A stretch of 25,420 bases of DNA. Origin: Gammaproteobacteria bacterium. Lineage in GTDB: Bacteria; Pseudomonadota; Gammaproteobacteria; Arenicellales; JAANXG01. Location: contig JBEPXV010000001.1 of assembly GCA_041641695.1 (NCBI GenBank), forward strand, positions 1 to 25,420, written 5' to 3'. How positions within the stretch are numbered: the stretch's first letter is position 1; each line of letters begins with the position of its first letter. The notes beneath the pieces were generated by a model. The model made no database searches. It worked only from the letters and a program-made list of their open reading frames with translations, and was not told the origin of the DNA. Both the position numbers and the translations under genes were made by a program. Shown here piece after piece: positions 12 to 25,420 of this stretch.

Positions 12-1829
12 ATGTCCCCCGAATACTTCACCAGTGACATCGCGCGGCATATCTGGGAAAGCCGCTACCGGCACCGCGACGGCGACGTCGTTCACGACCG
101 GTCGGTGAGCGATACCTGGCGGCGGGTCGCCCGGGCCCTGGCCGATGTCGAGGCGCACGACCGGGATGCCTGGGCGGACCGCTTCTATCACGCCCTGGAG
201 GACTTCCGCTTCCTGCCGGGCGGGCGCATCCTGGCCGGCAGCGGCACGGACCGGCGGGTGACATTGTTCAACTGCTTCGTCATGGGCCGCGTGGAGGACT
301 CACTGGACGGCATCTTCGACGCCCTGAAGGAAGGCGCCGTGACCATGCAGCAGGGCGGCGGCGTGGGCTATGACTTCTCCACGCTGCGCCCGGCCGGCAG
401 CCGGGCGCGCAGCGCGGGGAGAATCTCCTCCGGCCCGGTATCGTTCATGGAGATCTGGGACACGATGTGCGCAACCCTGCTGTCCACCGGCAGCCGACGC
501 GGCGCCATGATGGCCACCCTGCGCTGCGATCATCCCGATATCGAGGCGTTCATCGAGGCGAAACACGAGGAAGGCTCCCTGCGCCACTTCAACCTGTCCG
601 TGCTGATCACCGACGCGTTCATGGAGGCGGTGCACGATGACGCCGCCTGGCCCCTGGTGTTTCCCGACGGCGAGCTGGATAACGGCGAGACGGGCGAAAC
701 CATACAGCGGCGCTGGCCGGGGTCGAAAAGCCCCGTGCCCTGCCGCGTATTCCGCAGGGTCGCCGCCCGGGAGGTGTGGCAGCGGATCATGCGCGCCACC
801 TATGACTACGCCGAGCCCGGCGTCCTGTTCATCGACCGCATCAACCGGCTCAACAATCTCCGTTACCGGGAGGAGATCAGCGCGACCAATCCCTGTGGCG
901 AGATCCCCCTGCCCGCCTACGGCGCCTGCAATCTGGGGTCGATCAACCTGACAAGGTTCGTCGAGAGGCCGTTAAGGGGGGACGCCCGCTTCGACCGGGC
1001 CGGTTTCGAGGAAACCGTCAAGGTCGCGGTGCGCATGCTGGACAACGTGGTGGACGCATCGCAGTTGCCGCTGCCGCAGCAGGCGGCGCAGGCGCGGGGC
1101 TCGCGCCGCATCGGTCTCGGCATCACCGGGCTGGCCGACGCCCTGATCATGCTGGGACACGTTTACGGCGGGCAGCCGTCGCTGCAATTCGCGCACGGGA
1201 TCATGCAGATCCTCTGCCACACCGCGTATCGCACATCCATCGTCATCGCCCGGGAGAAAGGCGCTTTCCCGTTCCTGGAGCCGGCGTACGCCGACAGCGA
1301 GTTCGTGCGCGGCCTCCCGGAGGACATTCAGCGGGGGATACGCGAGGCCGGCATCCGTAACAGCCACCTTACCGCCATCGCGCCCACCGGCACCATCAGC
1401 CTGCTGGCGAACAACATCTCCAGCGGCCTGGAACCGGTGTTCGATTTCAGCTATCAGCGCCGGATCATGGATGAAGCGGGCCGGTCCCGGGAATACGAAA
1501 TAACGGATTACGCGTATCGTCTGTGGCAGGAACAAAACGGCGATCAGGCGCCGCCGCCGGAGTCCTTCGTGGACGCCCGAAACCTGGACCCGGAGACCCA
1601 CCTGGCCATGCAGGCCGCGATCCAGCCCTGCGTGGACAATGCCATCTCCAAGACCATCAACGTCCCTGAAAATTTCGCATTCGAGCGCTTCAAGACGCTC
1701 TACCAGTCAGCCTATGAGCAGGGTCTCAAAGGATGCACGACCTTCCGGGCCAACCCGGTCACGGGAGAAGTCCTGTCATCCGTCAAGGACAGCACCTTGT
1801 GCTGCAGTATCGAGCGGGAGGCCGATTGA
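12..1829 (+). CDS. nrdJ: Class II (adenosylcobalamin-dependent) ribonucleotide reductase, compact form without ATP cone
   Basis: 605 aa with FLPGGRIL, TLFNCFV, GGGVGYDFS, ATNPCGEIPL (radical Cys), GACNLGSINL, RRIGLGITGLAD, IAPTGTIS, SSGLEP and KGCTTFR motifs, plus a C-terminal CC pair. No NrdB-type small subunit lies downstream. Confidence 0.93.
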   Translation: MSPEYFTSDIARHIWESRYRHRDGDVVHDRSVSDTWRRVARALADVEAHDRDAWADRFYHALEDFRFLPGGRILAGSGTDRRVTLFNCFVMGRVEDSLDGIFDALKEGAVTMQQGGGVGYDFSTLRPAGSRARSAGRISSGPVSFMEIWDTMCATLLSTGSRRGAMMATLRCDHPDIEAFIEAKHEEGSLRHFNLSVLITDAFMEAVHDDAAWPLVFPDGELDNGETGETIQRRWPGSKSPVPCRVFRRVAAREVWQRIMRATYDYAEPGVLFIDRINRLNNLRYREEISATNPCGEIPLPAYGACNLGSINLTRFVERPLRGDARFDRAGFEETVKVAVRMLDNVVDASQLPLPQQAAQARGSRRIGLGITGLADALIMLGHVYGGQPSLQFAHGIMQILCHTAYRTSIVIAREKGAFPFLEPAYADSEFVRGLPEDIQRGIREAGIRNSHLTAIAPTGTISLLANNISSGLEPVFDFSYQRRIMDEAGRSREYEITDYAYRLWQEQNGDQAPPPESFVDARNLDPETHLAMQAAIQPCVDNAISKTINVPENFAFERFKTLYQSAYEQGLKGCTTFRANPVTGEVLSSVKDSTLCCSIEREAD

Positions 1830-1875
1830 TCCCGAACCGGCAGCCCGCGATTCGGACGGCCCGTCGCCTCGCCCC

Positions 1876-2457
1876 TTAAGAGCACGAGGCCGGATTGGCG
1901 GCGGCTTCGATGACCCCGCCCTGGCCACTGCTGTAGTCGACGAAGGCGACCCGGACTCCGGTACCCGGGGCGAGACTGGTGCAGTCGATCGTTGCCGATT
2001 GGGCCGGCGTGTCTATAGCCAGGGCAAACGCCGCAACGCTGGCACTGCTGTTGTTGTGGACGAACAGCTGATAGCGCTCGGTATCCAATGCTTCGCCGCA
2101 GGCGATGGAGGCGGTCTCGCCCCCCGGTGGCTCCGTAACATCGGCGCTGATCGAATGCGGCCCGCTGCTTTCTCCGGGACGCAGCAACGCGCCGCCCGGC
2201 AGCCGCAGGCTCAGATCAAGATCCACGTCATCGGCCCAGGTCAGGACCGCCGTCAGGTCATCGATGCACGGTCCGGGTTCGAGCGGCGCATCATGGGGAG
2301 GCTCCGCAGGCGTGTCTGCGTCCGACGTCTGCGCATGTGCCGGCAGCAACGCGGTTTCGACCACCGGAGTCAGCCATCGGTCGGGAAACGCAGCCGCGGC
2401 ACCACCGGTGCCCAGCATCAGTTTCAGTATCCGCCTGCGCGGAACGTCTTGTTTCAT
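1876..2457 (-). CDS. Tat-exported protein with a YfaP/DUF2135-like C-terminal domain
   Basis: N-terminus MKQDVPRRRILKLMLG has a twin-arginine motif, and AHA/QTS is a plausible cleavage site. The mature part contains LTWADDVDLDLSLRLPGG, resembling the W-x(3-5)-DLDL-x(4)-PxG motif of YfaP/DUF2135. Start placed at 2457 from GGGAG spacing (2463 is an alternative). Confidence 0.6.
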   Translation of the reverse strand: MKQDVPRRRILKLMLGTGGAAAAFPDRWLTPVVETALLPAHAQTSDADTPAEPPHDAPLEPGPCIDDLTAVLTWADDVDLDLSLRLPGGALLRPGESSGPHSISADVTEPPGGETASIACGEALDTERYQLFVHNNSSASVAAFALAIDTPAQSATIDCTSLAPGTGVRVAFVDYSSGQGGVIEAAANPASCS

Positions 2458-2742
2458 GAGCATGTTCTCCCGTGGGATTCTGGTTTTTGATTTGCAGACA
2501 ATCGCTCGTCACATGAGTACATCGATGACCGGCGTGCCCGGATCAGTCCCGTGGTCATTGGAAAAACACACCGCCACTGCCAGGACCTGGAACCGATTCC
2601 GGGAGACCGAAGCGGAGCGATTGTAATCAGGCGGGGGGGAAAGAAAACCGCGGGGCGTTGCCCGAGTGTTTCCGGTTTGTATTCGACGGATTATGAATGG
2701 AGTCGGCGTCGTGCCGACATGTCCTTCGGAATGAATTCCGCG

Positions 2743-3840
2743 CTACGGGCGCGGTCTTCCGCCGATCCAGCCCTTGCGGCGGAAGTAATAGAGCAGCCCC
2801 ACAGCCACCAACAGCATTATGGCGAGGGCGAAGGGATAGCCGAGGTACCACTGCAGCTCGGGCATGTTCAACGGTGAAGCCGCCGGGTCGAAGTTCATGC
2901 CGTAGACGCCGGCGATGAAGCTCAGGGGGATGAATATCGTCGCGATGATGGTGAGCACCTTCATCACTTCGTTCATCCGGTTTGACAGGCTGGACAGGTA
3001 CAGGTCGGTGAGGCCCGCGGCCCGCTCACGGAACGTTTCCAGAATATCGACGATCTGAATCACGTGGTCGTGGCAGTCGCGCAGAAAGTAGCGCGTTTCA
3101 TCGCGGATCAACGGCATGTCACCGGACAGGTCGCGGAGCGCCTCCCGGAACGGCCAGATGCCGTGCCGCAGCACCTGGAAGTCCCGCTTCAGCCCGTGAA
3201 TCTGCTCGACGGTCTGGTGGTCGGGCGCCACGACCACGATGTCTTCCGCGTCGTTCAGGCGTTCGCTGTAATGCTCCAGGACCGGGAAATACGCGTCGAC
3301 GATGGCATCTATCAGGGCGTAGGCGAGGTAGTCCGGGCCCATGAAGCGCACGCGCGTGCCGCCCTTGCGTATCCGCTCGCGAACGGGCTCCAGGCAGTCC
3401 CCGGGCCGCTCCTGGAACGACACCACGAAACGACCGCCCAGAAACAAGCTGACCTGCTCGATATCCAGGGCGTCGTCCCTGATGCGCGCCATGCGGGTCA
3501 CGACGAACAGGTTGTCGTCGTATGCTTCCGCCTTCGGCCGGTGACGCGTGTTCAGTACGTCCTCGAGGGCCAGGGTGTGCAGCTCGAAGATCTCCCCCAG
3601 TCTCTTCAGCAGCTCGACGTCGCCTAGGCCGTCGACATTCACCCAGACCACGTCGTACCGGTCCAGCAATGAACGAATATCGTCCGGGTCCTTCAAGGTC
3701 AGCTCCACAAGCTGGGTCCGGTCGTAGGCCATGATGCTGATCACCGGCTCGGGCGCCCCTTCCGGCTCGATCAGCGTACCAGGGGCCACCGCCTGGTGGT
3801 CCACCTTCTTCTGGCTGAAAAGCCGGTGGTGTCCGCTCAT
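2743..3840 (-). CDS. corA: Magnesium/cobalt transporter CorA
   Basis: 365 aa with the GVYGMNF signature, MPEL loop, two C-terminal TM helices, and LHTLALEDVLNTRHRPK, SNRMNEVMKVLT. Confidence 0.95.
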   Translation of the reverse strand: MSGHHRLFSQKKVDHQAVAPGTLIEPEGAPEPVISIMAYDRTQLVELTLKDPDDIRSLLDRYDVVWVNVDGLGDVELLKRLGEIFELHTLALEDVLNTRHRPKAEAYDDNLFVVTRMARIRDDALDIEQVSLFLGGRFVVSFQERPGDCLEPVRERIRKGGTRVRFMGPDYLAYALIDAIVDAYFPVLEHYSERLNDAEDIVVVAPDHQTVEQIHGLKRDFQVLRHGIWPFREALRDLSGDMPLIRDETRYFLRDCHDHVIQIVDILETFRERAAGLTDLYLSSLSNRMNEVMKVLTIIATIFIPLSFIAGVYGMNFDPAASPLNMPELQWYLGYPFALAIMLLVAVGLLYYFRRKGWIGGRPRP

Positions 3841-3860: not shown

Positions 3861-4067
3861 TCAGTCAGTGCCCGCCCCGGACCGGGGCGCAGCGGATCGC
3901 TCCCGCCACATGCGCTGCAGGAACTCCTCGTCGGAAGGGGAAAGATCGAAGCGCCGGCAGGCCTCCTCGACCACGGCAGGGTCGTTGCACCGCTGCTGGG
4001 CGAGCCAGGCGACGGCCCGCCCCAGCCGCTCCCGGTGCGGGATCAGCGCTTCACCCCGGGCGGGCAT
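3861..4067 (-). CDS. Small conserved hypothetical protein (68 aa)
   Basis: ORF between fba and corA on the same strand. The sequence RAVAWLAQQ...VVEEACRRFDLSPSDEEFL resembles a small helical hypothetical family I recall from proteobacteria. Start placed at the internal ATG (4067). Confidence 0.6.
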   Translation of the reverse strand: MPARGEALIPHRERLGRAVAWLAQQRCNDPAVVEEACRRFDLSPSDEEFLQRMWRERSAAPRSGAGTD

Positions 4068-4124
4068 CCGGCTGTCCGTCCCGGCTCCGCAGCACGACGC
4101 TCGTGCCGCCGGATGGCGCACGGA

Positions 4125-5147
4125 TCACGCTGCCGCTTCCATGGCGCTGCTGTACTCGCCGTTGCGCGCCGCGCTGTTGAGCCTGGCCCGCTCATAGAAC
4201 GCCGCTTGCGCCCGGCTCGCATTGGCGGGATCGCCCTTCCACGCCTGCAGGGTCGTCTCCTGCAGCGCCCGCCCATACGAGAAGCTGAGCTCCCAGGGCC
4301 GGTGGGGCTGCTGGTTGATCGCATTGAGATTGGCCGTGGCCTCCTCGGGGGACTGGCCGCCGGACAGGAAGTTGATGGTCGGAACCGCCGCCGGGACGGT
4401 ACGCAGAAGCACCCGGAGCGTCCACTCGGCGACCTCTGCGGGCCCCGCCTGGTGGGCGCTCTCCTTACCGGAGATCACCATGTTTGGCTTGAGCACCATG
4501 TGCTCCAGGGTGACCCGGTGGCGGTGCAGCGCGTGGAAGACCTCGTTCTGGACCGCCTCGGTGACCTCGGCGCAGCGCTCGATGTCGTGGCCACCGTCCA
4601 TCAACACCTCGGGCTCGACGATGGGCACGATGCCCTGCGCCTGGCAGATGGCGGCGTACCGCGCCAGCACCTCGGCATTGGCTTCCACGGCCAGCCGGCT
4701 CGGCAGCGTATCGGAGATGTGATACACGCAGCGCCACTTCGCGAAGCGCGCTCCCTGTTCTTTGTAGCCCTTCAGACGGTCGTCCAGGTCATCGAGCCCC
4801 CCGGTAATCTCGTCGCCCGGCGCCCCGGCCAGAGGGCCCTTGCCCTTGTCCACCTTGATACCCGGCACGACGCCCCGGGCGGCGGCCAGCTCCGGCAGCG
4901 GCGTGCCGTCATCGGCTTTCTGGCCCAGTGTCTCCTCGAACATGATCACGCCGCTGACGAACTCGCCGATGCCCTCCGTCGACAGCAGCAGGGAACGGTA
5001 GCTGCGCCGATTCTCCTCTGTGGACTCCACGTCGACGGCTTTCAGCCGCTTGGCCATGGTGGGATTACTCTCGTCGGCGGCCAGTATGCCCTTGCCCTTC
5101 CGGGCGAGCTCGTCGACCGTGGCCTGAAGCTCGTCTTGTACGCTCAT
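4125..5147 (-). CDS. Fructose-bisphosphate aldolase class I (animal/plant-type family)
   Basis: Motifs GILAADES, PGIKVDKG, FAKWRCV, PIVEPEV, LKPNMV (Schiff-base Lys), FLSGGQS, SFSYGRALQ. GGAGG precedes the ATG at 5147. Confidence 0.95.
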   Translation of the reverse strand: MSVQDELQATVDELARKGKGILAADESNPTMAKRLKAVDVESTEENRRSYRSLLLSTEGIGEFVSGVIMFEETLGQKADDGTPLPELAAARGVVPGIKVDKGKGPLAGAPGDEITGGLDDLDDRLKGYKEQGARFAKWRCVYHISDTLPSRLAVEANAEVLARYAAICQAQGIVPIVEPEVLMDGGHDIERCAEVTEAVQNEVFHALHRHRVTLEHMVLKPNMVISGKESAHQAGPAEVAEWTLRVLLRTVPAAVPTINFLSGGQSPEEATANLNAINQQPHRPWELSFSYGRALQETTLQAWKGDPANASRAQAAFYERARLNSAARNGEYSSAMEAAA

Positions 5148-5185
5148 TGGTTCCTCCGTCGGATCGCGGTCAAGCATTTCCCGGT

Positions 5186-5225: not shown

Positions 5226-6062
5226 TCAGTGCGACATCAGCACCGGCACCGTCATGGATTCCAGGATCTCGCGCGTGGCGCCGCCCAGCACCAGCTCCCG
5301 GTAGCGGGAGTGGCCGTAGGCGCCCATGACGATCAAGTCCGCCTGCTGGTCCGAGGCCCGCGACAGCAGCATTTCCCCCACCGAGATATCCTCGGACTCG
5401 ATGTGCGCCGCCTCGGCCTTGACCTGGTGGCGGGCGAGATGCAGGGAGATATCAGCGCCCGGCAGGTCACCGTCGCCGGCCGGCCCCTTGCGCGGATTGA
5501 TGGAAAGGACCCGCACGGACCTGGCCACTTCGAGCAGCGCCATGGCGTCGTGGACGGCGCGCATCGCCTCGCGGCTGGCGTCCCAGGCCACCAGCACGCG
5601 CTCGCCGAAGCTCTCGGGCGCGCCGATGTAGGGAATCAACAGCACCGGGCGGCCGACATCCAGAAGCACCTGCTCCACGACCCCCTGGCTCACCGACCAT
5701 TGATCGGACGGGTTCGCCTGGCCGAGTATCAGGAGATCCACGTACCGGGCATGAAGCGACAATGTCCGCGTGAGCCCGCCCTCGACGAGCCGCCACTCGG
5801 TCGTAACGCCGGCCCGGTCGGCCGCGTCCTTGAATGCCTTTTTCGCCTCCTCGGACTTCTCGAGCGCCACCCGCCGCTGCTCTTCGAGGATGTCCCCGGG
5901 AATATGGGCCTCGGTATAGGCCGGCATCACGGTCTGGTCCGGTGCGACGTAAAGTCCGGTCAAATGGGCATCATGGGCGGCCGCGAGCCGCAATGCGGCA
6001 TCCACGCGCCCGGCGTTGGCCTTGCTGCTATCGACGTGCACCAACAGGTCTTTCAGTGCCAT
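5226..6062 (-). CDS. Universal stress protein, tandem UspA domains (278 aa)
   Basis: Starts MALKDLLVHVD. Contains YVDLLILGQ, GRPVLLIP, RVLVAWDASREA, ADLIVMGAYGHSR and VPVLMSH. AAGGAG precedes the ATG at 6062. Confidence 0.95.
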   Translation of the reverse strand: MALKDLLVHVDSSKANAGRVDAALRLAAAHDAHLTGLYVAPDQTVMPAYTEAHIPGDILEEQRRVALEKSEEAKKAFKDAADRAGVTTEWRLVEGGLTRTLSLHARYVDLLILGQANPSDQWSVSQGVVEQVLLDVGRPVLLIPYIGAPESFGERVLVAWDASREAMRAVHDAMALLEVARSVRVLSINPRKGPAGDGDLPGADISLHLARHQVKAEAAHIESEDISVGEMLLSRASDQQADLIVMGAYGHSRYRELVLGGATREILESMTVPVLMSH

Positions 6063-6170: not shown

Positions 6171-6184
6171 TTGATCTGGATCAA
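6171..6184. promoter_or_regulatory. FNR/Anr-type binding site (perfect) for the usp gene
   Basis: TTGATCTGGATCAA matches TTGAT-N4-ATCAA exactly. A -10-like GACAAT (minus strand, 6143-6148) places the box centre at -41.5. Confidence 0.85.
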
Positions 6185-6212: not shown

Positions 6213-9200
6213 TCATGTCCCGCCGTCCGCGCCGCGCCGCTCGGCGAGCATCAGCAAGCACGGCGTCAGGAACAGAGTCAACACCGTCGCCAGCGCGAGG
6301 CCGCCGGCGATGCCGCTCGACAACTGGGTCCACCATTGGGACGACGGCGCCCCGTAGGCGATATCGCGTCCTACCAGATCGACGGTGAGCGTGAGCACCA
6401 TCGGCATCAGGCCGAGAATGGTGGTCGCCGAGGTCAGTATAACCGGTCGGCGCCTCTGCATGGCGGTCCGCAGCACGGCGGTGCGCAGGTCCGTGCCGCG
6501 CGCCCGGTAGCGGTTGAACGTGTCGATCAGAACGATGTTGTTGTTGACCACCACCCCCGCCAGCGCGATCACCGCGACACCGCCCATAACCACGCCGAAG
6601 GCCTGGCCGGTGATCAACAGGCCGATCAGCACGCCGGCGGTAGAAAATACGATGGCGCTCAGGATGATTCCGGTCTGGGCGAAGCTGTTGAACTGCGTCA
6701 CCAGTACGATGAGCATGATGAAGATCGCCGCCGCGAACGCTTTTGACAGGAAAGCCGAGGCCTCATCCATCTCCTCGGCTTCCCCCTTGAACCGGACCTG
6801 GAGCCCGGCCGGCAGCCCGGCTTCCGGCAGGGCCGCGCGGATACGCCCCACCTGGTCGTCCGGCAGACGGCCGGCTGCCACGTCCGCCTTGATGGTCATG
6901 ACCCGCCGCCCGTCGACCCGGCGGATGGAGCCGGTCTTGGGTGCCGGCCGGAAGCTTACGAAGTTGCTGATCGGCACCTGGCCCACCCTGGTGGGCACAC
7001 GCAGCTCATCGAGCTGATCCAGGGTGCGCTCGTCGTAGGGAAAGCGGATACGTATATCGACGGCTTCGTCCGCATCCTCGGGGCGATACTCGCCGAGATT
7101 GATCCCCGCCGTGAGCATGCGCACCGACTGGCCGAGCAGCAGAACATCCGCACCGAATCGCGCCGCCGACTCGCGGTCGACTTCCAGGCGCCACTCGATG
7201 CCCGGCAGGGGCCGGGAGTCCTCGACGTCCACGAAGCCGTCCAGCTCCGTCATCAGGCCGCGGAGCCGCTCGATGCCCGCTTCGATGTCCCCGAGGTTCT
7301 CGCCGCGGACCTCGATCTGTACCGGCTTGCCGGTGGGCGGCCCCGATTCCTGCTCCGCCACCTGGACCACCACGCCCGGGGCGCGCGAGGCCCGATGGCG
7401 GATGTCGGCGATGATCTCGTCGGCGGGACGGCGCTGCCGCCAGTGCTCGAAATCGAATTGAATGAGACCTATGGTATCGATGGGCAGAAAATCCTCTACG
7501 CCCCGCGTCGTGCCCATGGTACGGGCGTAAACTGTTTCTACGCCCGGAACGCCGGACACGCGCCGCTCGAGGTCGCGCACCAGCTCGTCCTTCTCCCACA
7601 CGGACAGATCGCCGCGCGCCCGTACCTGCGCCTGAGCGAGCTCCGGCTCGATGTCCGGGAAGAACTCCACGCCACGGCCAAGCTCGGCATAGGCCAGGTA
7701 AACACCCACCAGCACAAGGACCGCAACGACCAGCACCGCCCGGGGCCGGCGCAGCAGACCGGCGAGCGCGCGGTAGTACAGGCCGGTTTCCGGGATGCGC
7801 TCGTCTAGGTCGGTATCGAAGTCCGCTTCCCGTGGGCCGTCATTGCCGGACGCACCGGCATCTCTCCCGCGCGCTATGGCCGCGCCGATCACCGGGACGA
7901 AAATCAGCGCCATGAGGAGCGACGCCAGCAGCGTGACCAGAACGGTGACGGGCAGGTATTTCATGAAATCGCCGACGATCCCGGGCCAGAACAACAGCGG
8001 CACGAACACCGACAGGGTCGTCGCGATGGACGCCGTGATCGGCCAGGCCATGCGCCGGGACGCGGACTCGAAAGCGAGGCGCGGCGGCATGCCGGCATCC
8101 ACGCGCCGGTCGGCCTGCTCCACCACAATGATGGCGCCGTCCACCAGCATGCCCACCACCAGGATCAGGCTGAACAGGGCGATGATGTTCAGTGTATAGC
8201 CCATCGAGTACAGCGCCAGGATGCCGGCCAGGAAAGCGCCCGGGATGGCGAGCCCCACCAGCAGGCCCGCCCGGAGACCCAGGACCGCCACGATCACCAG
8301 CATCACCAGCACCACGGCGGTGAGCACGTTGTTCTCCAGCTCACCCACGACCTGCCTGATGTCCTCGGACTGGTCCTGCAGGTAGGTCACGCGGATCCTG
8401 CCGCCCCAGCGCTGCTGCTGAGTTTCGATGATGTCCCGAGCGCGGTCCACGGTATCGATGATGTTCGCGCCGACGCGCTTCTTTATCTCGAGGGCCACCG
8501 AGGGCTCCCCGTTGACCCGCGCGAAGCCGTCCGGGGTCTTGAAGGTTCGGCGCACGGTGGCCACGTCGCCGAACGTCACCACGCGGCCGTCCACGGTCTT
8601 GAGAGGCAGCGAGAACACGTCCTCGCGCGACTCGATGACACCCGGAACCTTCAGAGCGATCTCGCCGGCCCGCGTCTCCAGCATACCGGCGGCCACCAGG
8701 CGATTGTTTCGCTGCAGGGTGCTCACCACCTCCTCGAAGGAAAGCTGGTAGGTCTGGAGCACCGTCGGGTCCACCAGGATCTCCATGACCTCCTCGCGGT
8801 CGCCGCCGATATCCACCTCCAGCACGCCGGGCAGGCCTTCCAGCCGGTCGCGCAGGTCCCTGGCGGCGGCGATCAGCCGGCGCTCCGGCACGTTGCCGGA
8901 CAATGCGGCCGTCACCACGGGGAAAAGCGCGATGTTCACTTCGCTGACGATCGGCTCCTCGGTGTCGGCGGGCAGCTCGCCGCGCACATTGTCCACCCGC
9001 TCGCGCACGTCGGTGAGCGCCTGGTCGGCATCGAAGCCGGCGCCGAACTCTAGGGTGATCGTCGCATAGCCCTCGGCGGCCAGTGAGCGCATCTCGTCAA
9101 CGCCCTCGATCGCCTGCAATTCTGTTTCCATTGGCCGCAGGAGCAGCCGTTCGGCGTCGTCCGGGGCGATGCCCTCGTGGATCATCGACACATTGATGAT

Positions 9201-15622: not shown

Positions 15623-15626
15623 CGCC

Positions 15627-16885: not shown

Positions 16886-16891
16886 AGCCGC

Positions 16892-16944
16892 GAGTGCCGC
16901 CCTCCTCGCCCGCCGGACAACGAGGGCAAAAGGGGGCGGCACTC
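16892..16944. terminator. Hairpin between convergent dodecin and hpf genes
   Basis: 11-bp perfect inverted repeat GAGTGCCGCCC (16892-16902) / GGGCGGCACTC (16934-16944), with additional imperfect inner pairing. No clear U tract. Confidence 0.5.
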
Positions 16945-16967
16945 CGTCAACGTGCCCGCGGCCGGCG

Positions 16968-17342
16968 CTACTCGATGGTCTCTCCGGGAGGCACCGGCGG
17001 CTCGTGGGTCTTGACCTTGCCCCGCCGCCGCTGCTCGTACTCCTTCAATTGGCGGCGGGCGCTGTTGAACGCGTCGCGGATCGCGACGTAAACATCTTCG
17101 TGGGCGTGGTTCTCGGCCGGGCTCCGGCTTGCCACGATTTCAGTGTCGGGCACGTGGAGCTCGATGAGAACGCTGTAGATCTTGCCCTTGTGGTGGTGCT
17201 TGTGGGGCGCGTCGATGGTCACGTGGCAGGCCGTGACCTGGTCGCTGAACTGCTCCAGCTTGTCGACCTTTTCCCGCACGGCTTTCTCCACGGCCGTGGA
17301 AGGATCCATATTGTGATAGGTAAGCTGTAAGGATACCGCCAT
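16968..17342 (-). CDS. HPF/RaiA family ribosome-associated (hibernation) protein
   Basis: [60 protein letters not shown]. Confidence 0.9.
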
Positions 17343-17404
17343 ATCGATTGCACCTGGTTGAGAACCGGAGAATCCGATTGTGCGCAGTCCCCCGCCGACA
17401 CCTA

Positions 17405-17418
17405 TTGATCCGTGTCAA
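17405..17418. promoter_or_regulatory. FNR/Anr-type site for the hpf gene
   Basis: TTGATCCGTGTCAA, one mismatch. A -10-like CACAAT (minus strand, 17377-17382) puts the centre at -41.5 for hpf. Confidence 0.78.
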
Positions 17419-17509
17419 TCAAGCGGCTGAAATGGAGCGCGCACCCGGACCGTCCGGCATCGAGTGCGTGCGGGGAGCATTCCGGGGCAACTCCGGCTAT
17501 ATTCGCGAC

Positions 17510-19066
17510 ATGACCGACAGGAACACAGCTACCGGCCGACTGAAGCTGCGCCACGTGGCCGTGGACACCTACCACGAGAACGTGGCCTACATGCACCGGG
17601 ACTGTGAGAATTACCGCGCGGAGGGATTTCAGGCGCTGTCCAAGATCAAGATCAGCTCCGATGGTCACGCCATACTGGCCATGTTGAACGTAGTGCGCGA
17701 CGACTCCCTGGTCTCGCCGGACGAACTGGGCCTGTGCGACCAGGCCTTCGAGCAGCTCGACCTCGAGGAGGGAACGAACCTGACCGTCGAGCACGCCGAG
17801 CAGCCCCGGTCCATGAGCTGCGTGCGCCGCAAGATCGAGGGGGAGCGCCTGAACAGAGCGGACTTCCAGGCCATTACCCGGGACATCGTCGACAACCAAT
17901 ACACCAAGATGGAGATGGCGGCATTCCTTGTCGCCGCCGACCAGGGCGGGCTCGACCGCGACGAGGTTCTCTACTACACCGAGGCCATGGCCGACACGGG
18001 TCGCCGGCTGGACTGGCACGAGTCCCTGGTGGCGGACAAGCATTGTATCGGCGGGATACCCGGCAACCGAACGTCCATGCTGGTGGTGCCCATCGTGGCG
18101 GCCCACGGCATGCTCATTCCCAAGACCTCCAGCCGCGCCATCACCTCGCCCGCCGGCACCGCCGACACCATGGAGGTGCTGGCAAAAGTCGACCTGTCGC
18201 CGGCCGATCTGCACCGGATCGTGCGCAGCGAGCGGGGCTGCCTGGCCTGGGGAGGAACCGCGCAACTGGCCCCGGTGGACGACATTCTCATCGCCGTTGA
18301 GCGGCCGCTGGGTATCGACGCCATGGGACAGATGGTGGCGTCGATCCTGGCCAAGAAGCTGGCGGCCGGCTCAACCCATCTCCTGGTGGACATTCCCGTC
18401 GGGCCGACCGCCAAAATCCGCAGCGAGCGCAGCGCCATGCAGCTTCGCAAGCTGTTCGAGTACGTCGGCGACCGCTGCGGCATCCACCTCGAGGTCATGA
18501 TCAGCGACGGCAGCCAGCCCGTGGGGCGCGGTATCGGGCCCGTTCTCGAAGCCCGCGACGTTATGCAGATCCTGCGCAACGACCCGGCGGGGCCGGAGGA
18601 CCTGCGCCTCAAGGCCTTGTACCTGGCCGGCCGCGTGCTGGAGTTCGATCCCGATGTGCGCGGCGGCCGGGGCTTCGCTATAGCCCGGGACATCCTGGAA
18701 TCGGGGCGGGCACTGACCCGGATGGAGGCTCTTATCGAGGCGCAGGGCGTACAATCCCGGCCGCCGGAGCTGGGCACGCTCATCCACGAGGTGACCGCCC
18801 GGCGCGAGGGGGTGATCGGGGCGATCGACAATTACCGCCTCAACCGGATCGCCAGCCTGGCGGGCGCGCCCATGGACAAGGGTGCCGGCGTGGACCTGTT
18901 GAAGAAAATCGGGGACCCGGTCGCCGCGGGCGAGCCCATGTACCGGCTGCACGCCCAATTCCAGGCCAACTTCAAGTTCGCGCGGAACATGATAGAAAAG
19001 GACACTGGGTTCACGATCGGCGACGACGACAACATCGAATCGGAAATTTCAAATGCCCGGAAGTAA
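17510..19066 (+). CDS. AMP phosphorylase / archaeal-type thymidine phosphorylase family protein
   Basis: 518 aa from ATG 17510, with the extra N-terminal domain ([17 protein letters not shown]...ALSKIKI) of the AMP-phosphorylase type. Also [71 protein letters not shown]. Confidence 0.9.
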
Positions 19067-19934
19067 GCGCTTGCTGGTCCTCGGTTTCCCGGAATACGTG
19101 GAACAGGCGAACCGCCTGGCCGGCGCCCTGGACAGCGCCTGCAAGATTATCGACATTCACCGTTTCCCTGACGGCGAAAGCCGGGTACGGCTGCCGGAGG
19201 AAGTACCGGCCCACGTGGTGCTGTGCCGCAGCCTGAACCAGCCCAACGACAAGCTTGTGGAGCTGATGCTCGCCGCCCGCACGGCGCGGGAACTGGGCGC
19301 CCGGGTCCTGACCCTGGCGGCGCCGTACCTGTGCTACATGCGCCAGGATGCCGCCTTCGCCGGCGGCGAGGCCGTCAGCCAGACCATCGTCGGGGAATGG
19401 CTGGGCAGCCTGTTCGATCGCGTCGTCACCGTGGACCCGCATCTGCACCGGACCGGCACCCTGGACGAGGTGGTGCCCGGCGCCGAGGCCGTCACGGTGA
19501 GCGCCGCGCCGGCTATGAGCGAGTACCTGAAGCACCTGCCCGACGCGCCGCTGCTCATCGGCCCCGACGATGAGGCCCGCCAGTGGGTGCAGCAGATCGC
19601 CGAGCTGTCGAACGTGGAATTCGCGGTGGCCACCAAGCAGCGCAGCGGCGACCGCGACGTGGAGGTGACCCTTTCCGACCACGACTGCGGAAACCGGAAC
19701 GTGGTGCTGGTGGACGACATCATCAGCACCGGCGAGACCATGGCCGCCGCCGTGCGCCACGCCCGGGCGGACGGCGCCGCGGCGATCCATTGCCTCGTCA
19801 CCCACGCCCTGTTCTGCGAAAGCGCGCTCGAGCTCCTTGAATCGGCGGGCGCGACCGGCATCGTCAGCACCGACAGCATCGAGCATCCTTCCAACAGGAT
19901 CCATCTGGCCCCGCTCATCGCAGAGGCCATATGA
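19053..19934 (+). CDS. Ribose-phosphate pyrophosphokinase, short archaeal-like type
   Basis: [50 protein letters not shown]. 293 aa; overlaps the upstream gene by 14 nt. Confidence 0.88.
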
Positions 19935-21319
19935 AGCTACAGTTCCTGGGCGCCACCCGCGAAGTCACCGGCTCATGCTACCTGCTCAGCCTCGGCAACA
20001 CGAAGATTCTCATCGAGTGTGGCCTGATCCAGGGCAGCGGCGAGCACGAACGCCATAACCATGACGCGTTCCGTTTCGATTCGAAGGAGGTCGACGCGGT
20101 AGTGGTCACCCACGCGCATATCGATCACTCGGGCCGGCTGCCGCTGCTGGTCAAACGGGGCTACCAGGGGCCCATCTACACCCACCGGGCGACGGTGGAC
20201 CTGTGCGAGGTGATGCTGGCGGACTCGGCATACCTCCAGGAGAAGGAAGCCGAGTGGCAGAACAGGGACCACGGCGGATCCGGGCGGGAACGCGTCGAGC
20301 CCCTGTACACCCGCGACGACGCAGCCCGGACCCAGGGGAGCTTCAGGGCGCTCGAGTACGGAAGCCCGCAGGAGATCGCCGACGGCGTGCGGGTCACGAT
20401 GCACGATGCCGGGCACATACTGGGCTCGGCGATCGCCGAGCTCGAGGTCACGGAGAACGGACGCACGCGCCGGATCGTATTCAGCGGCGACCTGGGCCAC
20501 CGCGGCGCGCCCATTCTGCGGGACCCGGCAATACTCTCCCGCGCGGACCTGGTTGTGATGGAGAGCACCTACGGCGACCGGCTGCACCGGTCGTGGCAGG
20601 ACACCTGGCTGGAGATGGGCGAAATCATTTCGAACGCCCGCAGCGAAAGAGGCAACATCCTCATCCCCGCGTTCACCGTGGGCCGCACCCAGGAGCTGCT
20701 ATACGTGTTCAACCAGAACTCCGAGAAGTGGGGCCTCGGCGACTGGCGCATCTTCCTCGACAGCCCGATGGGTATTGCGGCCACAGGCATATACGAGCGG
20801 CACGCCAAGGTTTACGACCGCCGCGCCGCCGAGTTCAACACCAGGCACCACGGGCTGTTCGACCTGCCCAACCTGTACATGAGCGAGACGCCCAAGGAGT
20901 CCATGGTGATCAACCAGATCCGGTCAGGAGCGATCGTCATCGCCGGCAGCGGCATGTGCACCGGCGGCCGTATCAAGCACCATCTCAAGCACAACATCTG
21001 GCGCGAGGCGTGCCACGTGATGATCGTGGGCTTCCAGGCCCGGGGCACCCCCGGCCGCGCCCTGGTGGACGGCGCGAGCCGCATCCGGCTGTGGGGCAAG
21101 GACTTCGACGTGGCGGCGAAGATTCACACTATCGGCGGCCTGTCGGCCCACGCCGACCAGCGCGGCCTGCTCGACTGGTACGCCGGCTTCGACGACAAGC
21201 CACCCGTCTGCCTGGTGCACGGCGAGCCCGAGTCCATGGACGCCCTGGCCGACAAGCTCACCAAAGACTACGACGCGAAGGTGACCCGGCCCGAATACGG
21301 GCAGGTCGTAAACCTGTAA
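19931..21319 (+). CDS. MBL-fold beta-CASP hydrolase (RNA-processing exonuclease family)
   Basis: FLGATREVTGSC, THAHIDHSG (HxHxDH), DAGHILGSA, FSGDLG, MESTYGDR, PAFTVGRTQE, AGSGMCTGGR, GLSAHAD, LVHGE. ATGA overlap with the prs-like gene. Confidence 0.93.
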   Translation: MKLQFLGATREVTGSCYLLSLGNTKILIECGLIQGSGEHERHNHDAFRFDSKEVDAVVVTHAHIDHSGRLPLLVKRGYQGPIYTHRATVDLCEVMLADSAYLQEKEAEWQNRDHGGSGRERVEPLYTRDDAARTQGSFRALEYGSPQEIADGVRVTMHDAGHILGSAIAELEVTENGRTRRIVFSGDLGHRGAPILRDPAILSRADLVVMESTYGDRLHRSWQDTWLEMGEIISNARSERGNILIPAFTVGRTQELLYVFNQNSEKWGLGDWRIFLDSPMGIAATGIYERHAKVYDRRAAEFNTRHHGLFDLPNLYMSETPKESMVINQIRSGAIVIAGSGMCTGGRIKHHLKHNIWREACHVMIVGFQARGTPGRALVDGASRIRLWGKDFDVAAKIHTIGGLSAHADQRGLLDWYAGFDDKPPVCLVHGEPESMDALADKLTKDYDAKVTRPEYGQVVNL

Positions 21320-21418: not shown

Positions 21419-21944
21419 CTAATCGGACTTTCGCAACTCGGTAGGTTGGGCGGCCGTAAGTGCTTGGTTTTCCAAGGGCGAGGAGGCAAAGGTCTGTACT
21501 ACATTTGCGCGGCTAGATTTGCAGCGGTGATCTTCGGCGGGCCTGGGGCGGCAGTGTCCAGCCGAGCTTGGCGAGCAATAGCTGCTGGTCGCTCTCCACA
21601 AAGACGTAGAGCTCATCCTCCTGCGGCAAAAGCTTCCCCTTGACCTCGGGGCGCGCGTGTTCCCACAATCGGGTGGCCAGCTCGCCTTCCAGCCGGCTCG
21701 AGTGTCCCTTCGGGGTCCCGACCAGGTAATGGGCGCCGCGCCGTCGCATCTCGGCTAGATGTGCTTCGGTCGGAATCCCCCGGTCGATCACCCAAACACG
21801 TTCGCCACAGCCATAGCGCGCTTCGATCCACTCGAGAAATTCCGGCAACGTAGTGCAATCCGCCGTGTTGCCGGCCAGCACTTCGAACCCCGCCCCGAAC
21901 AACTCCTGCCAGCGTTGCTTCAAAAATCCGAACAACGCCTCCTT
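21419..21944 (-). mobile_element. IS1634-like transposase remnant (internally deleted C-terminal part) with probable right end
   Basis: Frame reads KEALFGFLKQRWQELFGA, GNTADCTTL, RVWVIDRGIPTE, YLVGTPKG, KLLPQEDELYV, LLLAKLGWTLPPQ. These are IS1634-type segments joined with long gaps. The sequence ctaatcggactttcgcaactc at 21419 resembles ends I recall for this group. Confidence 0.78.
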
Positions 21945-22020
21945 CGTTTGCGACGTTTCCAGCTTCGTCCGGCCAGGCGCCGGAACAGGCTGAATTTATC
22001 ACAATACGCCAGACGAGCTT

Positions 22021-22034
22021 GTGATATGCGTCAA
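22021..22034. promoter_or_regulatory. Weak FNR/CRP-like site upstream of the cytochrome c gene
   Basis: GTGATATGCGTCAA, two mismatches. It overlaps an 8-bp inverted repeat TATCACAA (21997-22004) / TTGTGATA (22019-22026). No convincing -10 at -41.5 spacing. Confidence 0.3.
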
Positions 22035-22141: not shown

Positions 22142-23200
22142 ATGCCGAAGCCAGCAACACGGCAGATTTCAATGCTGGGGTTCAGTTGCGTCGTTGCCGG
22201 GCTGTTAATTGTCCCGCAGGTGGCCGACACCCAGGTCCGCGATCAAAGCGGTAAGGAAATTGTCGACACGTTCTGCGCCGAGTGCCACCGGACAGGGGAT
22301 AATGACGCCCCGAAGATCGGCGATGCGGAGGCGTGGAAGGCGCGTGCATCGTTGGGACTGACGGCGCTCACGCAACATGCCTTGGATGGTATCCGCCGGA
22401 TGCCCCCGCATGGCGGCCACCCGCAGCTTACCGACCTGGAGATCGCGCGTGCAATCACCTACATGGTCAACGCATCGGGTGGCGACTGGGTGGCGCCTGA
22501 GAGCCGAGCTGACATAACCGCGGAGCTTGCCGGCAAGGAGGTCGTCGAGGCGTATTGTAGCGATTGCCACCAGAGCGGGCATGAAGGCGCTCCCCGGGTT
22601 GGTGACAAAGAGGCATGGATACCCCGGCTCCAACAGGGGCTTGCCTACGTTGTGCGCTCCGCGATCAAGGGTCACGGCGGCATGCCGCCGCGCGGGGGTG
22701 CTGCCAATCTTACCGATGCCGAAATACGGAACGCGATCGTTTACATGTTTGATCCGGAAACGGCCACCGCGAGCCAAAGGGCCTGGCGCCCGGAAGAAAA
22801 ACAAACCGGACCGGTTGAGGGCAATCACGCGAATGTCGGGGGAATGCACATATATCTTGGCTTCGTGTCCGCGGAAAAGCTCCGCGGCTATCCGACGGGA
22901 TCACCCGAACGATCCATGCACAGAGGGATCCCGAGTGGTGCTGACTGGTATCACGTCAACGTGACCCTGCTCGAGCAGGCGGATCATGCCCCGATCACCG
23001 ATGCCCGGGTGGAGGTGCAGGTCGATGAAGCGGGCGCGGTGATGAAATCCAAGGATCTCGAGTCAATGGCGGTCGGACAGGGAAGCTATGGAAATTACTT
23101 CCGGTTGCGGGCCAGGACATCGTACGGCGTTACCGTCCGGGTGCACGCTCCCGGTTCACCGGGTCCCGTCGAAGCCGAGTTCCGGCACGAACACCTGTGA
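22142..23200 (+). CDS. Periplasmic di-heme cytochrome c5-like protein with extra C-terminal beta-rich domain
   Basis: Signal peptide, CAECH and CSDCH heme motifs, c5-type APKIGD..AW / APRVGD..AW, and Met-ligand motifs MPPHGG and MPPRGG. About 125 further residues follow. GGGAGG precedes ATG 22142. Confidence 0.88.
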   Translation: MPKPATRQISMLGFSCVVAGLLIVPQVADTQVRDQSGKEIVDTFCAECHRTGDNDAPKIGDAEAWKARASLGLTALTQHALDGIRRMPPHGGHPQLTDLEIARAITYMVNASGGDWVAPESRADITAELAGKEVVEAYCSDCHQSGHEGAPRVGDKEAWIPRLQQGLAYVVRSAIKGHGGMPPRGGAANLTDAEIRNAIVYMFDPETATASQRAWRPEEKQTGPVEGNHANVGGMHIYLGFVSAEKLRGYPTGSPERSMHRGIPSGADWYHVNVTLLEQADHAPITDARVEVQVDEAGAVMKSKDLESMAVGQGSYGNYFRLRARTSYGVTVRVHAPGSPGPVEAEFRHEHL

Positions 23201-23297
23201 GGCCCACCGTGCCTGAAGATCGTTCCATGACCTCGAGCTACCCTTTACCAGCTGACTAATACCAATTTTATACAGACACGTGACGGAGGCCGTCATC

Positions 23298-23492
23298 ATG
23301 ACAACCGTTTACTGGATTACTACTGCAGCGCTTCTGCTTGTCATCGCCTCACTGGTCAGCGGTGCAATCTCCATGGGCCACGGCGGTGAATTCGACCGGA
23401 AACACGCTACGGAATTCATGTTTCTCCGCGTGGGCTTGCAGGCACTGGCGATCGCGTTGGTGATGCTGCTGGCGTACATGAACTACGTGTGA
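23298..23492 (+). CDS. HIG1-domain twin-transmembrane small protein
   Basis: Two TM helices flanking SMGHGGEFDRKHATEFMFLRVGLQ (HIG_1_N pattern). GGAGG RBS. Confidence 0.85.
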   Translation: MTTVYWITTAALLLVIASLVSGAISMGHGGEFDRKHATEFMFLRVGLQALAIALVMLLAYMNYV

Positions 23493-23645
23493 CCGGTATC
23501 GTTGTTACGAAGCCGGACGAATCTCCGGACTCCCGAATTCGAGACCCCTTGTTCGCCTTGGAGTCAACCAAGCGTCTCAGCCGCTCCGCTTCAAAGTGGC
23601 GACCAACCGCGGATTGGCTAATGTGGCTGTTCTGTCAGTAATCAT

Positions 23646-23819
23646 CTCGCCAATCCTATCCAGACAGCGGTACAGGGTGTCATTGGCAATGACCACACAA
23701 CCCTTGTCCAACAAGTCCGCCATCGCGCTGCGCCCATACTACTGCCGGTGCAGCCGCCAGTCGCTTCCCGGTTCCAGTAGCTGATACGCCGTCACCACCA
23801 TCAGCACGAGATACCACAA
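23646..23819 (-). pseudogene. IS1634-like transposase fragment (middle region) with in-frame stop
   Basis: Manual translation of the minus strand gives LWYLVLMVVTAYQLLEPGSDWRLHRQ*YGRSAMADLLDKGCVVIANDTLYRCLDRIGE. This matches the PGSEWRLHRxW...SAMADLL...LYRCLD block of these transposases. Confidence 0.8.
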
Positions 23820-24006: not shown

Positions 24007-24258
24007 TTAAGCCCTCTTAACCAGGCTTATTACAAACAACAAAATAACGGCGCCGATAGTGGCCATAATTATGGAGCCTAATAACCCGCCTGTTGTTATG
24101 CCGAGCAAGCCGAATACAAAGCCACCCACTACGGCACCCACAACCCCCACGATAATATTCCCTAAGAGACCAAACCCGCTTCCCTTCATTAAGTTGCCAG
24201 CAAGCCACCCGACCAGCGCGCCAATAGCCAGAAATATTATTAAGCTGATGATATCCAT
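24007..24258 (-). CDS. GlsB/YeaQ/YmgE family stress-response membrane protein
   Basis: 83 aa, Gly-rich with three TMs: IGALVGWLAGNLMKGSGFGLLGNIIVGVVGAVVGG...ATIGAVILLFVISLVKR. GGAGG RBS. Confidence 0.93.
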   Translation of the reverse strand: MDIISLIIFLAIGALVGWLAGNLMKGSGFGLLGNIIVGVVGAVVGGFVFGLLGITTGGLLGSIIMATIGAVILLFVISLVKRA

Positions 24259-24269: not shown

Positions 24270-24395
24270 TTAACTGTTAGAGAAAAGGACTATGCCCATA
24301 ACAAAACTGACAGCACCAGCAATGTAGAAAGTCATCATCCTATCCGTATCCGAACCTGTAACAGCCTGTATTATCTGCAAACCGACTGAACCAGG
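24270..24395 (-). pseudogene. 5'-truncated DUF3185-like small membrane protein gene
   Basis: Manual translation PGSVGLQIIQAVTGSDTDRMMTFYIAGAVSFVMGIVLFSNS* resembles the C-terminal half of DUF3185 (SVGSQ...TGSPTDK..W..IGG). There is an in-frame stop just upstream, at the IS110 junction. Confidence 0.5.
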
Positions 24396-24397
24396 TC

Positions 24398-24478
24398 AGC
24401 ACCAACGATACCACTGTCTACGTCGGATTGGATGTGCACAAGGACACCATCACCGCCGCCTGCTTCGGCGCCGAACCC
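24398..24478 (+). mobile_element. IS110-family transposase N-terminal fragment
   Basis: Frame reads STNDTTVYVGLDVHKDTITAACFGAEP, the YVGLDVHK DEDD-domain start of IS110 transposases. There is no start codon and the similarity stops after about 27 codons. Confidence 0.7.
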
Positions 24479-24509
24479 GTCTCGCGATCAGGATTCCGGC
24501 CGGTACGAT

Positions 24510-25420
24510 TCAACCCTGCCGCATCTCCACGACCCTCAAACGCATCTGCTTCTCGGACTCTATCAGCGCGAAAAGCACCAGGCCGATACCGACAATCACC
24601 AGGCCGTCGGTGAAGGATACCGCCTGCGTGCCCAGCACGCGTTGCAGGAACGGGATGTAGGTGACGGCGAACTGGGCCGTCGTGGCAATGCCCACCGCGA
24701 TCCATACCGCGGGCGTGCCCGCCACCGCCTTCCAGGTGAGCGACGTGCCGTAGGCGTTGCGCATGAAGAACAGGTAGAAGATCTCCATGACCACCAGCGT
24801 GTTGACCGCCAGGGTGCGCGCCAGCTCGAGGGAATATCCTTGCTGCAGGCCATAGGTGAATATGCCGAACATTCCGCACAGGAACAGCGTCGACACGAAC
24901 ACCACCTGCCACACCAGGCCGCCCGTCAGCAGCGGCTCGCTGCGCGGCCGCGGCGGGCGGCGCATGGTGTTCTCCTCGGTGGGCTCGAAGGCCAGGGCGA
25001 TGCCCAGGGTGACGGCGGTAATGAGGTTCACCCAGAGGATCTGCACGGGGGTGACCGGCAGGCTGAGGCCGAACAGGACCGCCACGATGATGGTCATGGC
25101 CTCGCCGGCATTGGTCGGCAGGGTCCAACCGATGACTTTCTTGAGGTTGTCGTAAACGGTCCGGCCGTAGCGGACCGCCGCGGCGATGGAGGCGAAGTTG
25201 TCGTCGGCGAGCACCAGCTCAGCCGATTCCTTGGCGGCCTCGCTGCCGCTTTTTCCCATGGCGATGCCCGCGTCGGCGCGCTTGAGGGCCGGCGCGTCGT
25301 TGACCCCGTCGCCGGTCATGGCCACCACCAGGCCCTGGGCCTGCAGAGCCGCCACCAGCCTGAGCTTGTGGGACGGGCTGGTCCTGGCGAAGATGTCCGT
25401 CTCGACGATCGCCGCGGCCA
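24510..25420 (-). CDS. Cation-transporting P-type ATPase (type II, Ca2+/CtpF-like), 3' part only; continues beyond the window
   Basis: FARTSPSHKLRLV, MTGDGVNDAPALKRADAGIAMG, VLADDNFASI, GRTVYDNLKK, QILWVNLIT, ALAFEPTE, and C-terminal TM helices. Confidence 0.93.
   Translation of the reverse strand, partial: AAAIVETDIFARTSPSHKLRLVAALQAQGLVVAMTGDGVNDAPALKRADAGIAMGKSGSEAAKESAELVLADDNFASIAAAVRYGRTVYDNLKKVIGWTLPTNAGEAMTIIVAVLFGLSLPVTPVQILWVNLITAVTLGIALAFEPTEENTMRRPPRPRSEPLLTGGLVWQVVFVSTLFLCGMFGIFTYGLQQGYSLELARTLAVNTLVVMEIFYLFFMRNAYGTSLTWKAVAGTPAVWIAVGIATTAQFAVTYIPFLQRVLGTQAVSFTDGLVIVGIGLVLFALIESEKQMRLRVVEMRQG

Follow-up and report, generated by a model that had tools for sequence, protein, structure and literature searches.

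Gene content of the locus

We analysed a stretch of 25,420 bases (the window) that makes up the whole of one contig, JBEPXV010000001.1, in the metagenome-assembled genome (MAG) of an uncultured salt-lake gammaproteobacterium, and that carries a tandem universal stress protein (USP), an arginine deiminase (ADI) operon, a ribosome-hibernation factor and a class II ribonucleotide reductase (RNR), several of these genes standing behind palindromes of the type recognised by FNR and Anr. Because the window is one entire contig (C1 in our numbering, where G, C and L denote genomes, contigs and loci), its genes are physically linked. The source MAG (G000) comprises 2.52 Mb in 464 contigs and is 71% complete. 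A soil MAG from Salar de Ascotan and MAGs labelled 'Arenicellales', all of them from uncultured Gammaproteobacteria, are the nearest public genomes, and 20 DNA runs contain part of the window, the best being a hypersaline lake metagenome. G+C is about 0.66, dropping to 0.56–0.60 over 22–25 kb.

Genes were called by codon-position G+C together with hidden Markov model (HMM) searches, and families were assigned by HMM scores at significance. A simple caller based on G+C at third codon positions (GC3) mis-called some genes (arcA and those for the membrane-fusion protein, MFP, and the M15 peptidase), and genome-wide counts of 'intergenic' boxes are therefore approximate. All the families named in the original prediction, which had been made from the letters of the window, were recovered by HMM: USP, class II RNR, hibernation-promoting factor (HPF), P-type ATPase, arc genes, aldolase, dodecin, cytochrome c, HIG1 and a phosphoribosyl/nuclease operon. 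It had left out a CorA channel, an AcrB/MFP efflux pair, an M15/DUF882 peptidase, a YeaQ/GlsB protein, two unknown open reading frames (ORFs) and transposase remnants. The boxes found between genes, and the genes that follow them, are listed here in order along the contig:

2743–3840, minus strand: CorA Mg2+ channel (HMM), final gene of the co-directional USP-FBA-hyp86-CorA string
3861–4121, minus strand: 86-aa hypothetical protein (hyp86), with no Pfam match
4125–5177, minus strand: class I fructose-bisphosphate aldolase (FBA; HMM)
5226–6062, minus strand: tandem USP (HMM)
6171–6184: FNR/Anr box TTGATCTGGATCAA, perfect, with its centre 115 nt ahead of the start codon of USP
11288–11301: FNR/Anr box ATGATCTCGATCAA with 1 mismatch, separated by 78 nt from the NhaC-like start downstream and by 206 nt from M15
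11373–16529, plus strand: ADI operon with an NhaC-family transporter in the arcD position (HMM)
11373–13379, plus strand: the NhaC-family transporter (HMM); the ORF opens at 11325 and the likely start is the GTG at 11373
13376–14611, plus strand: arcA (PF02274)
14630–15622, plus strand: arcB (OTCace)
15627–16529, plus strand: arcC (AA_kinase)
16685–16885, plus strand: dodecin, a flavin-storage protein (HMM), about 155 nt downstream of arcC
16968–17342, minus strand: short HPF/YfiA ribosome-hibernation factor (HMM)
17405–17418: FNR/Anr box TTGATCCGTGTCAA with 1 mismatch, between the divergent HPF and TP-like genes, at 69 nt from the former and about 98 nt from the start of the latter
17510–19066, plus strand: TP-like protein (PRK04350; archaeal-type nucleoside/NMP phosphorylase; HMM)
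19053–19934, plus strand: PRS-like protein (PRK07199; HMM)
19931–21319, plus strand: beta-CASP metallo-beta-lactamase (MBL) protein, a predicted metallo-RNase (HMM)
22021–22034: weak FNR-type box GTGATATGCGTCAA with 2 mismatches, 114 nt ahead of cytochrome c
22142–23200, plus strand: multi-haem c-type cytochrome (HMM)
23280–23492, plus strand: HIG1/DUF2909 small membrane protein, a weak assignment (PF04588, 24.2 bits against 22.4)

The true USP start is the ATG at 6062 and not at 6188, and the USP, FBA, hyp86 and CorA genes follow one another in the same direction with gaps of 3–48 nt. All three enzymes of the ADI pathway (arcA, arcB and arcC) share one operon with a candidate dedicated transporter, whose gene overlaps arcA by the 4 nt ATGA; the transporter has an N-terminal extension of some 300 aa ahead of its Na_H_antiporter domain, the Pfam match beginning at residue 325. 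The TP-like, PRS-like and beta-CASP genes overlap at their ends and form an operon at 17510–21319 on the plus strand.

FNR/Anr boxes and the FNR gene

The window was scanned for TTGAT-N4-ATCAA with at most two mismatches, its intergenic share being 2290 nt (9%). Eight matches were found, and the four that fall between genes include all three with at most one mismatch. These four intergenic boxes have 0, 1, 1 and 2 mismatches and lie 69–119 nt from start codons, distances like those of class II FNR-dependent promoters. At up to one mismatch the whole MAG holds 75 boxes, about 35 of them in roughly called intergenic DNA, and from this intergenic count about 0.35 would be expected in the window where 3 are observed. 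Perfect boxes number 5–17 per genome in five genomes of the genus, compared with none for the reversed control pattern.

The boxes are also conserved at orthologous promoters. The USP orthologue is preceded by a box in all three congeners compared (G001–G003), and among 20 further genomes of the order a box with at most one mismatch precedes it in 9, against a shuffle mean of 0.26; in 11 of these 20 a box lies 73–118 nt from the start. HPF homologues from five other genomes have one 63–144 nt upstream in every case. Upstream of the orthologous arc operon in G002 there is a similar box, the FBA orthologue of that genome has an FNR box of its own, and its cytochrome c orthologue has one with a single mismatch (TTGATCCAGGTCAA). 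The TP-like gene of G001 is preceded by a perfect box, and at TP-like loci elsewhere a box was seen in 8 of 80, where about 1.5 would be expected.

A regulator of the right kind is encoded in the MAG. Specifically, the product of C203:2361–3119 (minus strand) has the cysteine cluster (CAECTKVCQC), the central cysteine (TSICALDF) and the E--SR recognition helix (VETVSRLF) of an iron-sulphur FNR, and its gene adjoins one for a CcoI-like ATPase. It is one of at least eight genes of the CRP/FNR family in this genome. Two of the family, at C152:4135–5138 and C310:529–1469, are themselves preceded by FNR boxes, the C152 gene by two, which suggests a regulatory cascade.

Clustering in related genomes

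The original prediction proposed a comparison of gene neighbourhoods across genomes, and what this gave was clustering within the genus: the same set is found together in three congeners, and there is no such association across wider genomes. In G001 the gene order is kept, running CorA-FBA-USP-AcrB-MFP-M15-arc-TP-PRS-bCASP-(VapBC)-Ptype. In G002 a single contig carries RtcB-RNR-CorA, then FBA, then USP divergent from a P-type ATPase, and in G003 all core genes lie within C5:50–104 kb. CorA is clustered with FBA and USP in all three, hyp86 homologues lie beside FBA in G002 and G003, and the M15/DUF882 peptidase recurs in the cluster in four of four genomes of the genus. In G001–G003 an operon for Hsp20 and LonC stands 5–14 kb from the TP operon or from the P-type ATPase, and G002 and G003 have, near the TP-like operon, an operon for an N-ATPase that is preceded by a perfect box, so that the island extends over about 50 kb in complete genomes. 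Within the family the TP-like orthologue occurs in genus g1 only, and outside the genus USP and FBA are not linked to each other. One island of a comparable kind was seen in another family of the same order, in G027; its genes, all of which have boxes, are those for RtcB, HIG1, three USPs, a P-type ATPase and an FNR-like regulator.

The slot between M15 and the TP-like gene is filled differently in G001. There (L123:4801–9639; window slot 11089–17530) the arc operon is inverted, has a different antiporter and shares only 58–61% protein identity with that of the window, whereas the genes flanking the slot share 74–92%. Both arc types are present elsewhere in G002, and the window type is orthologous to one of the two (81–82%). 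Finding differing arc operons in one slot suggests either replacement or differential loss.

A candidate low-oxygen island

We read the window as part of a genus-specific island where an oxygen sensor of the FNR/Anr type governs several transcription units, and put the probability of this at roughly 0.68. It is probably a low-oxygen survival island resembling the lxa locus of Burkholderia, judging from its genes and promoters. Oxygen dependence, the operon boundaries and a role in anoxic survival or dormancy are what we infer from the observed genes, boxes, FNR gene, box conservation and within-genus synteny, and the low-oxygen interpretation would apply to roughly 12–14 of the 22 genes.

On this reading, the FNR of C203 would keep its [4Fe-4S] cluster as oxygen falls, dimerise and bind TTGAT-N4-ATCAA boxes at about –41.5 from the transcription start. 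It would switch on the tandem USP, probably along with the co-directional FBA, hyp86 and CorA genes, and the NhaC-type transporter with arcABC, possibly together with dodecin, which would yield ATP from arginine without respiration. Induction of the accessory HPF would bring about ribosome hibernation, that of the TP-like/PRS-like/beta-CASP operon would serve RNA and nucleotide turnover, and the cytochrome c-HIG1 pair would be switched on as well. RtcB-RNR, M15-MFP-AcrB, YeaQ and the P-type ATPase are neighbours for which no such control is proposed.

Several observations weigh against this reading. About one third of the genes have neither a box nor an obvious link to oxygen (RtcB-RNR, the secreted ORF described below, M15-MFP-AcrB, YeaQ and the P-type ATPase of the window). 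The cytochrome c box of the window has two mismatches, the –10 elements are weak, with none recognisable in the TP-like orientation, and the TP-like orthologues of G002 and G003 have no box at up to two mismatches. The segment at 22–24.6 kb is low in G+C and has insertion sequence (IS) remnants on either side, so that part of the clustering would come from a recent mosaic insertion. The run search returned DNA runs only and no RNA run containing window sequence. The box class, moreover, is common to FNR/Anr, Dnr/NNR and FixK-type regulators, and given the number of CRP/FNR genes in the MAG the signal could be nitric oxide (NO) or another cue. Finally, only about 2 of the 12–14 perfect boxes per complete genome lie inside the island. 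The anoxia-survival kit of the original prediction is supported in part, as far as the FNR boxes, the iron-sulphur FNR, box conservation and synteny within the genus are concerned, but it does not take in the third of the genes just named, and most boxes are outside the island.

The small share of perfect boxes also speaks for a plainer explanation: that this is an ordinary synteny block without functional unity, in which the longest contig of the MAG happens to bring a few members of a dispersed FNR regulon close to genes for housekeeping and transport (FBA, CorA, RND efflux, M15, RNR), the 'kit' having been read into it. The FBA is the sole class I aldolase found in the genus and possibly a housekeeping enzyme, the USP-FBA and TP-USP linkages are lost outside the genus, the neighbours of TP-PRS in 14 diverse genomes outside the genus include no recurrent hypoxia-type family, and the arc, HPF, dodecin, RNR and cytochrome c genes change place or are missing among congeners. 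We nevertheless consider such a block unlikely. The density of boxes in the window is about 8 times the genome intergenic rate, and the box-preceded Hsp20/LonC, N-ATPase and second P-type ATPase genes gather in the same 50 kb or so of the complete relatives. That G001 should have a different arc operon in the same slot, and that an analogous island of USP, HIG1, RtcB, P-type ATPase and FNR-type regulator should occur in another family of the order, also argues for more than chance linkage.

A source in a hypersaline lake metagenome, and the many members belonging to generic stress or ion-transport families, would alternatively fit an island that serves a halophile in general stress, in stationary phase or in ion homeostasis. 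USP, HPF, YeaQ/GlsB, Hsp20 and dodecin would then be there for stress, CorA, the NhaC transporter, the P-type ATPase and the N-ATPase for ions, and the palindromes would be bound by a CRP/FNR member that does not sense oxygen, such as a Dnr/NnrR-like NO sensor or a FixK-like relay. The C38 regulator, which has E--SR but no cysteine cluster, could be a protein of this sort, and the two boxes before the C152 regulator suggest a cascade. The consensus is of the FNR/Anr and not of the CRP type, however, the MAG encodes a bona fide iron-sulphur FNR, and ADI and tandem USP are classical Anr targets. Relays of the Dnr/FixK type are themselves low-oxygen pathways, so that this explanation overlaps with FNR/Anr control; taken as a whole it appears to us very improbable.

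Comparison with known systems

The closest parallel is the lxa locus of Burkholderia cenocepacia (Sass et al., 2013; PMC3721108), where a TGA-N6-TCA motif occurs at 17 intergenic sites. The lxa genes encode USPs, one of which adjoins a cation ATPase, and also cytochrome c551/552, a class II RNR, alpha-crystallin, a metal-dependent RNase, a Zn protease and Anr-like regulators. Both are clusters in which many co-located transcription units stand behind an Anr/FNR-like palindrome: lxa extends over tens of kb, and there are four or five such units in the 25 kb of the window and more in the approximately 50 kb of G001–G003. Five families are shared, matched by family name, namely USP, class II RNR, cytochrome c, cation P-type ATPase and metal-dependent beta-CASP/MBL RNase, and the ATPase adjoins a USP in lxa and in the congeners G002 and G003. 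Beyond the window the likeness extends to alpha-crystallin and an ATP-dependent protease, found in relatives and on other contigs of the MAG. A single tandem USP is present in the window itself, which contains no regulator; C62 and C13 carry Hsp20, a USP-like gene and additional USPs, and these are adjacent to the cluster in relatives.

The differences are considerable. The host lineage differs, and the window has no regulator gene, polyhydroxyalkanoate synthesis, acetate kinase/Pta, alcohol dehydrogenases, ribokinase or nitroreductase. Conversely, the ADI pathway, HPF, dodecin, TP-like/PRS-like, FBA, CorA and RND efflux are not reported in lxa. For lxa both expression and a deletion phenotype are established, whereas the present island is predicted from sequence. 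The resemblance to lxa that had been claimed is kept as an analogy by family name and by the TGA-N6-TCA motif class (PMC3721108), not as membership.

The boxes themselves bear comparison with the Anr regulon of Pseudomonas aeruginosa: the sensor is of the same iron-sulphur FNR/Anr type, the box is the same, and the targets are again an arginine deiminase operon and a tandem USP. Anr controls arcDABC in P. aeruginosa, and ADI and tandem USPs are textbook Anr targets there. Two USPs of that species, PA3309 and PA4352, are listed in the Anr regulon (PMC12071387). In P. aeruginosa the targets are dispersed, whereas several are physically grouped here, and the arcD slot of the window holds not an APC-type ArcD but the NhaC-family protein with its long N-terminal extension.

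The DosR regulon of Mycobacterium tuberculosis includes USPs, the RNR NrdZ, the ATPase CtpF adjacent to a USP, and alpha-crystallin. The likeness is one of function, in that USPs, an accessory class II RNR, a type IIA ATPase beside a USP and alpha-crystallin recur, and the lxa paper already compares the DosR members (PMC3721108). DosR acts within the DosR/DosS two-component system on a motif of the GGGAC-N4-GTCCC type, in a different phylum. The window contains a single match to this motif, with 1 mismatch (at 6208) and no meaningful pattern, and HMM searches found no DosR-type response regulator encoded in it; the DosR motif was rejected, and the proposed resemblance to the DosR regulon comes down to an analogy of families.

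A review of 2025 (PMC12071387) has already emphasised how far the regulons of Anr, Lxa and DosR overlap, so that the gain here is incremental: the island is probably an environmental variant of the FNR/Anr-wired low-oxygen kind and not a new kind of system. What it would add is that lxa-like islands wired in this way are not confined to Burkholderia pathogens and also occur in uncultured halophilic gammaproteobacteria, with a different cargo. That cargo comprises genes for arginine fermentation, accessory copies of HPF and of NrdJ, the latter linked to RtcB, and the operon for a nucleotide phosphorylase, PRS and RNase, joined in relatives by the N-ATPase and Hsp20-Lon. The island also gives a concrete regulon prediction for an uncultured lineage.

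The HPF/TP-like divergent region

The HPF of the window is an accessory copy: two congeners gave no match to it, and a third, G006, has a weak partial match (41%). (G004–G006 are further genomes of the genus.) On the other side of the shared box, the TP-like and PRS-like genes form a widespread pair, present together in 71–72 of 80 loci, with beta-CASP present in 8–9 of the 80. A literature search for this pair under Anr or hypoxia returned nothing relevant.

The single FNR box between HPF and the TP-like gene might drive a coupled anoxic programme, in which ribosomes hibernate while beta-CASP cuts surplus RNA, the nucleotides are phosphorolysed by the TP-like enzyme and the products are fed to phosphoribosyl pyrophosphate (PRPP) or ATP by the PRS-like one. 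We regard this as quite doubtful. If true, bacteria would here be using the archaeal AMP-phosphorylase module independently of RuBisCO, for energy and salvage, and the module would have been recruited, with interchangeable ADI operons, into one oxygen-controlled island. In any event the island is a natural setting for asking what the widespread and uncharacterised TP-like/PRS-like pair does.

The archaeal AMP-phosphorylase/pentose-bisphosphate pathway as such, which combines AMP phosphorylase with R15P isomerase and form III RuBisCO, was rejected. Searches of four genus genomes (G000, G004–G006) gave no RuBisCO, and the TP-like protein scores 491 bits, below the cut-off of 535 for the AMP-phosphorylase equivalog TIGR03327. 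A gene of the IF-2B family is present once per genome.

Neighbouring genes

The remaining features of the window are the following:

12–1829, plus strand: accessory class II (B12) RNR of the NrdJ/NrdZ type (TIGR02504 NrdJ_Z, 584 bits against a cut-off of 400)
1876–2463, minus strand: secreted hypothetical protein of 195 aa with a Tat-like signal; no family in HMM or Atlas searches
6213–10464, minus strand: RND efflux pair, AcrB-like pump (6213–9368) and MFP (9346–10464) (HMM)
10522–11088, minus strand: M15/DUF882 peptidase (HMM)
21513–21995, minus strand: DDE transposase remnant (HMM)
about 23577–23819: second DDE transposase fragment
24007–24258, minus strand: YeaQ/GlsB (transglycosylase-associated) stress membrane protein (HMM)
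about 24362–24613: IS110-like fragment
24510–25418, minus strand: type IIA P-type cation ATPase, C-terminal 302 aa, cut by the contig end (HMM)

In alignment the RNR matches the catalytic residues of T. maritima NrdJ (NCF, NPCGE, CNLGS and the C-terminal CC pair) and is predicted to be catalytically intact. A second contig, C257, overlaps window bases 1–127 exactly and places a gene for the RNA ligase RtcB (L002:149–1579, minus strand) so that it ends 33 nt upstream of the RNR. The RtcB-RNR pair is also found in the congener G002 (contig C7), and RtcB again in G027, within the island that has USP, HIG1 and P-type ATPase genes. The search for FNR boxes gave none for RtcB-RNR, and none upstream of RtcB in relatives at up to two mismatches. 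The original prediction took the RNR for a source of deoxynucleotides without oxygen. The argument that it replaces an oxygen-dependent class I enzyme does not apply: the class I small subunit (R2, PF00268) was not found in four genus genomes (G000, G004–G006), the MAG yielded no class III RNR, and a second NrdJ, of the C60 type, serves as the housekeeping RNR of the genus, the window type being found in G000 and G002 only. With no class I R2 and another NrdJ already in the housekeeping role, the window RNR is an accessory paralogue and no substitute for an oxygen-dependent enzyme. A search for related loci with the RNR alone gave only 5 loci, with no Burkholderia among them.

The efflux pair is syntenic in G001 and has no FNR box of its own, and there is no dedicated box for YeaQ/GlsB either. 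The promoter of the P-type ATPase lies off the contig. Its G001 orthologue is 92% identical at the amino acid and 88% at the nucleotide level and has no box at up to two mismatches upstream, whereas the paralogous C13-type ATPase is box-preceded in G000, G002, G003 and G027. In the low-GC part of the window, where the G+C of the segment is 0.56–0.60, cytochrome c has a GC3 of 0.68 compared with 0.86 elsewhere. The low G+C and the DDE and IS110-like fragments that bracket it point to a recent insertion of the cytochrome c-HIG1-YeaQ segment; no flanking repeats were found around cytochrome c-HIG1. An Atlas search with the 86-aa protein returned unnamed clusters only.

Further box-preceded modules

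On C62 (L132:3730–7538) Hsp20/alpha-crystallin, a LonC-like protease and a USP-like protein form an operon behind an FNR box; LonC appears fragmented in G003. An N-type F1Fo ATPase operon with atpD first lies at C28:2678–9450, and its box has two mismatches in G000 and is perfect in G002 and G003 (L190:14662; L191:2415). A second cluster on C13 (L130) contains a USP, a PLD/VTT protein, the box-preceded paralogous P-type ATPase, an AMP-binding/acyltransferase protein, an MBL hydrolase and a methyltransferase with two boxes, and C82 carries a box-preceded cytochrome c. The other box-preceded genes of the MAG (Hsp20-LonC-USP-like, the second P-type ATPase and cytochrome c) are of the hypoxia/dormancy type.

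The secreted 195-aa protein has no dedicated FNR box in the window. It has three paralogues in the MAG, a homologue adjoins M15 in G002 (L128:2081–2383), and the C68 paralogue (C68:7589–8144) has an FNR box 100 nt upstream.

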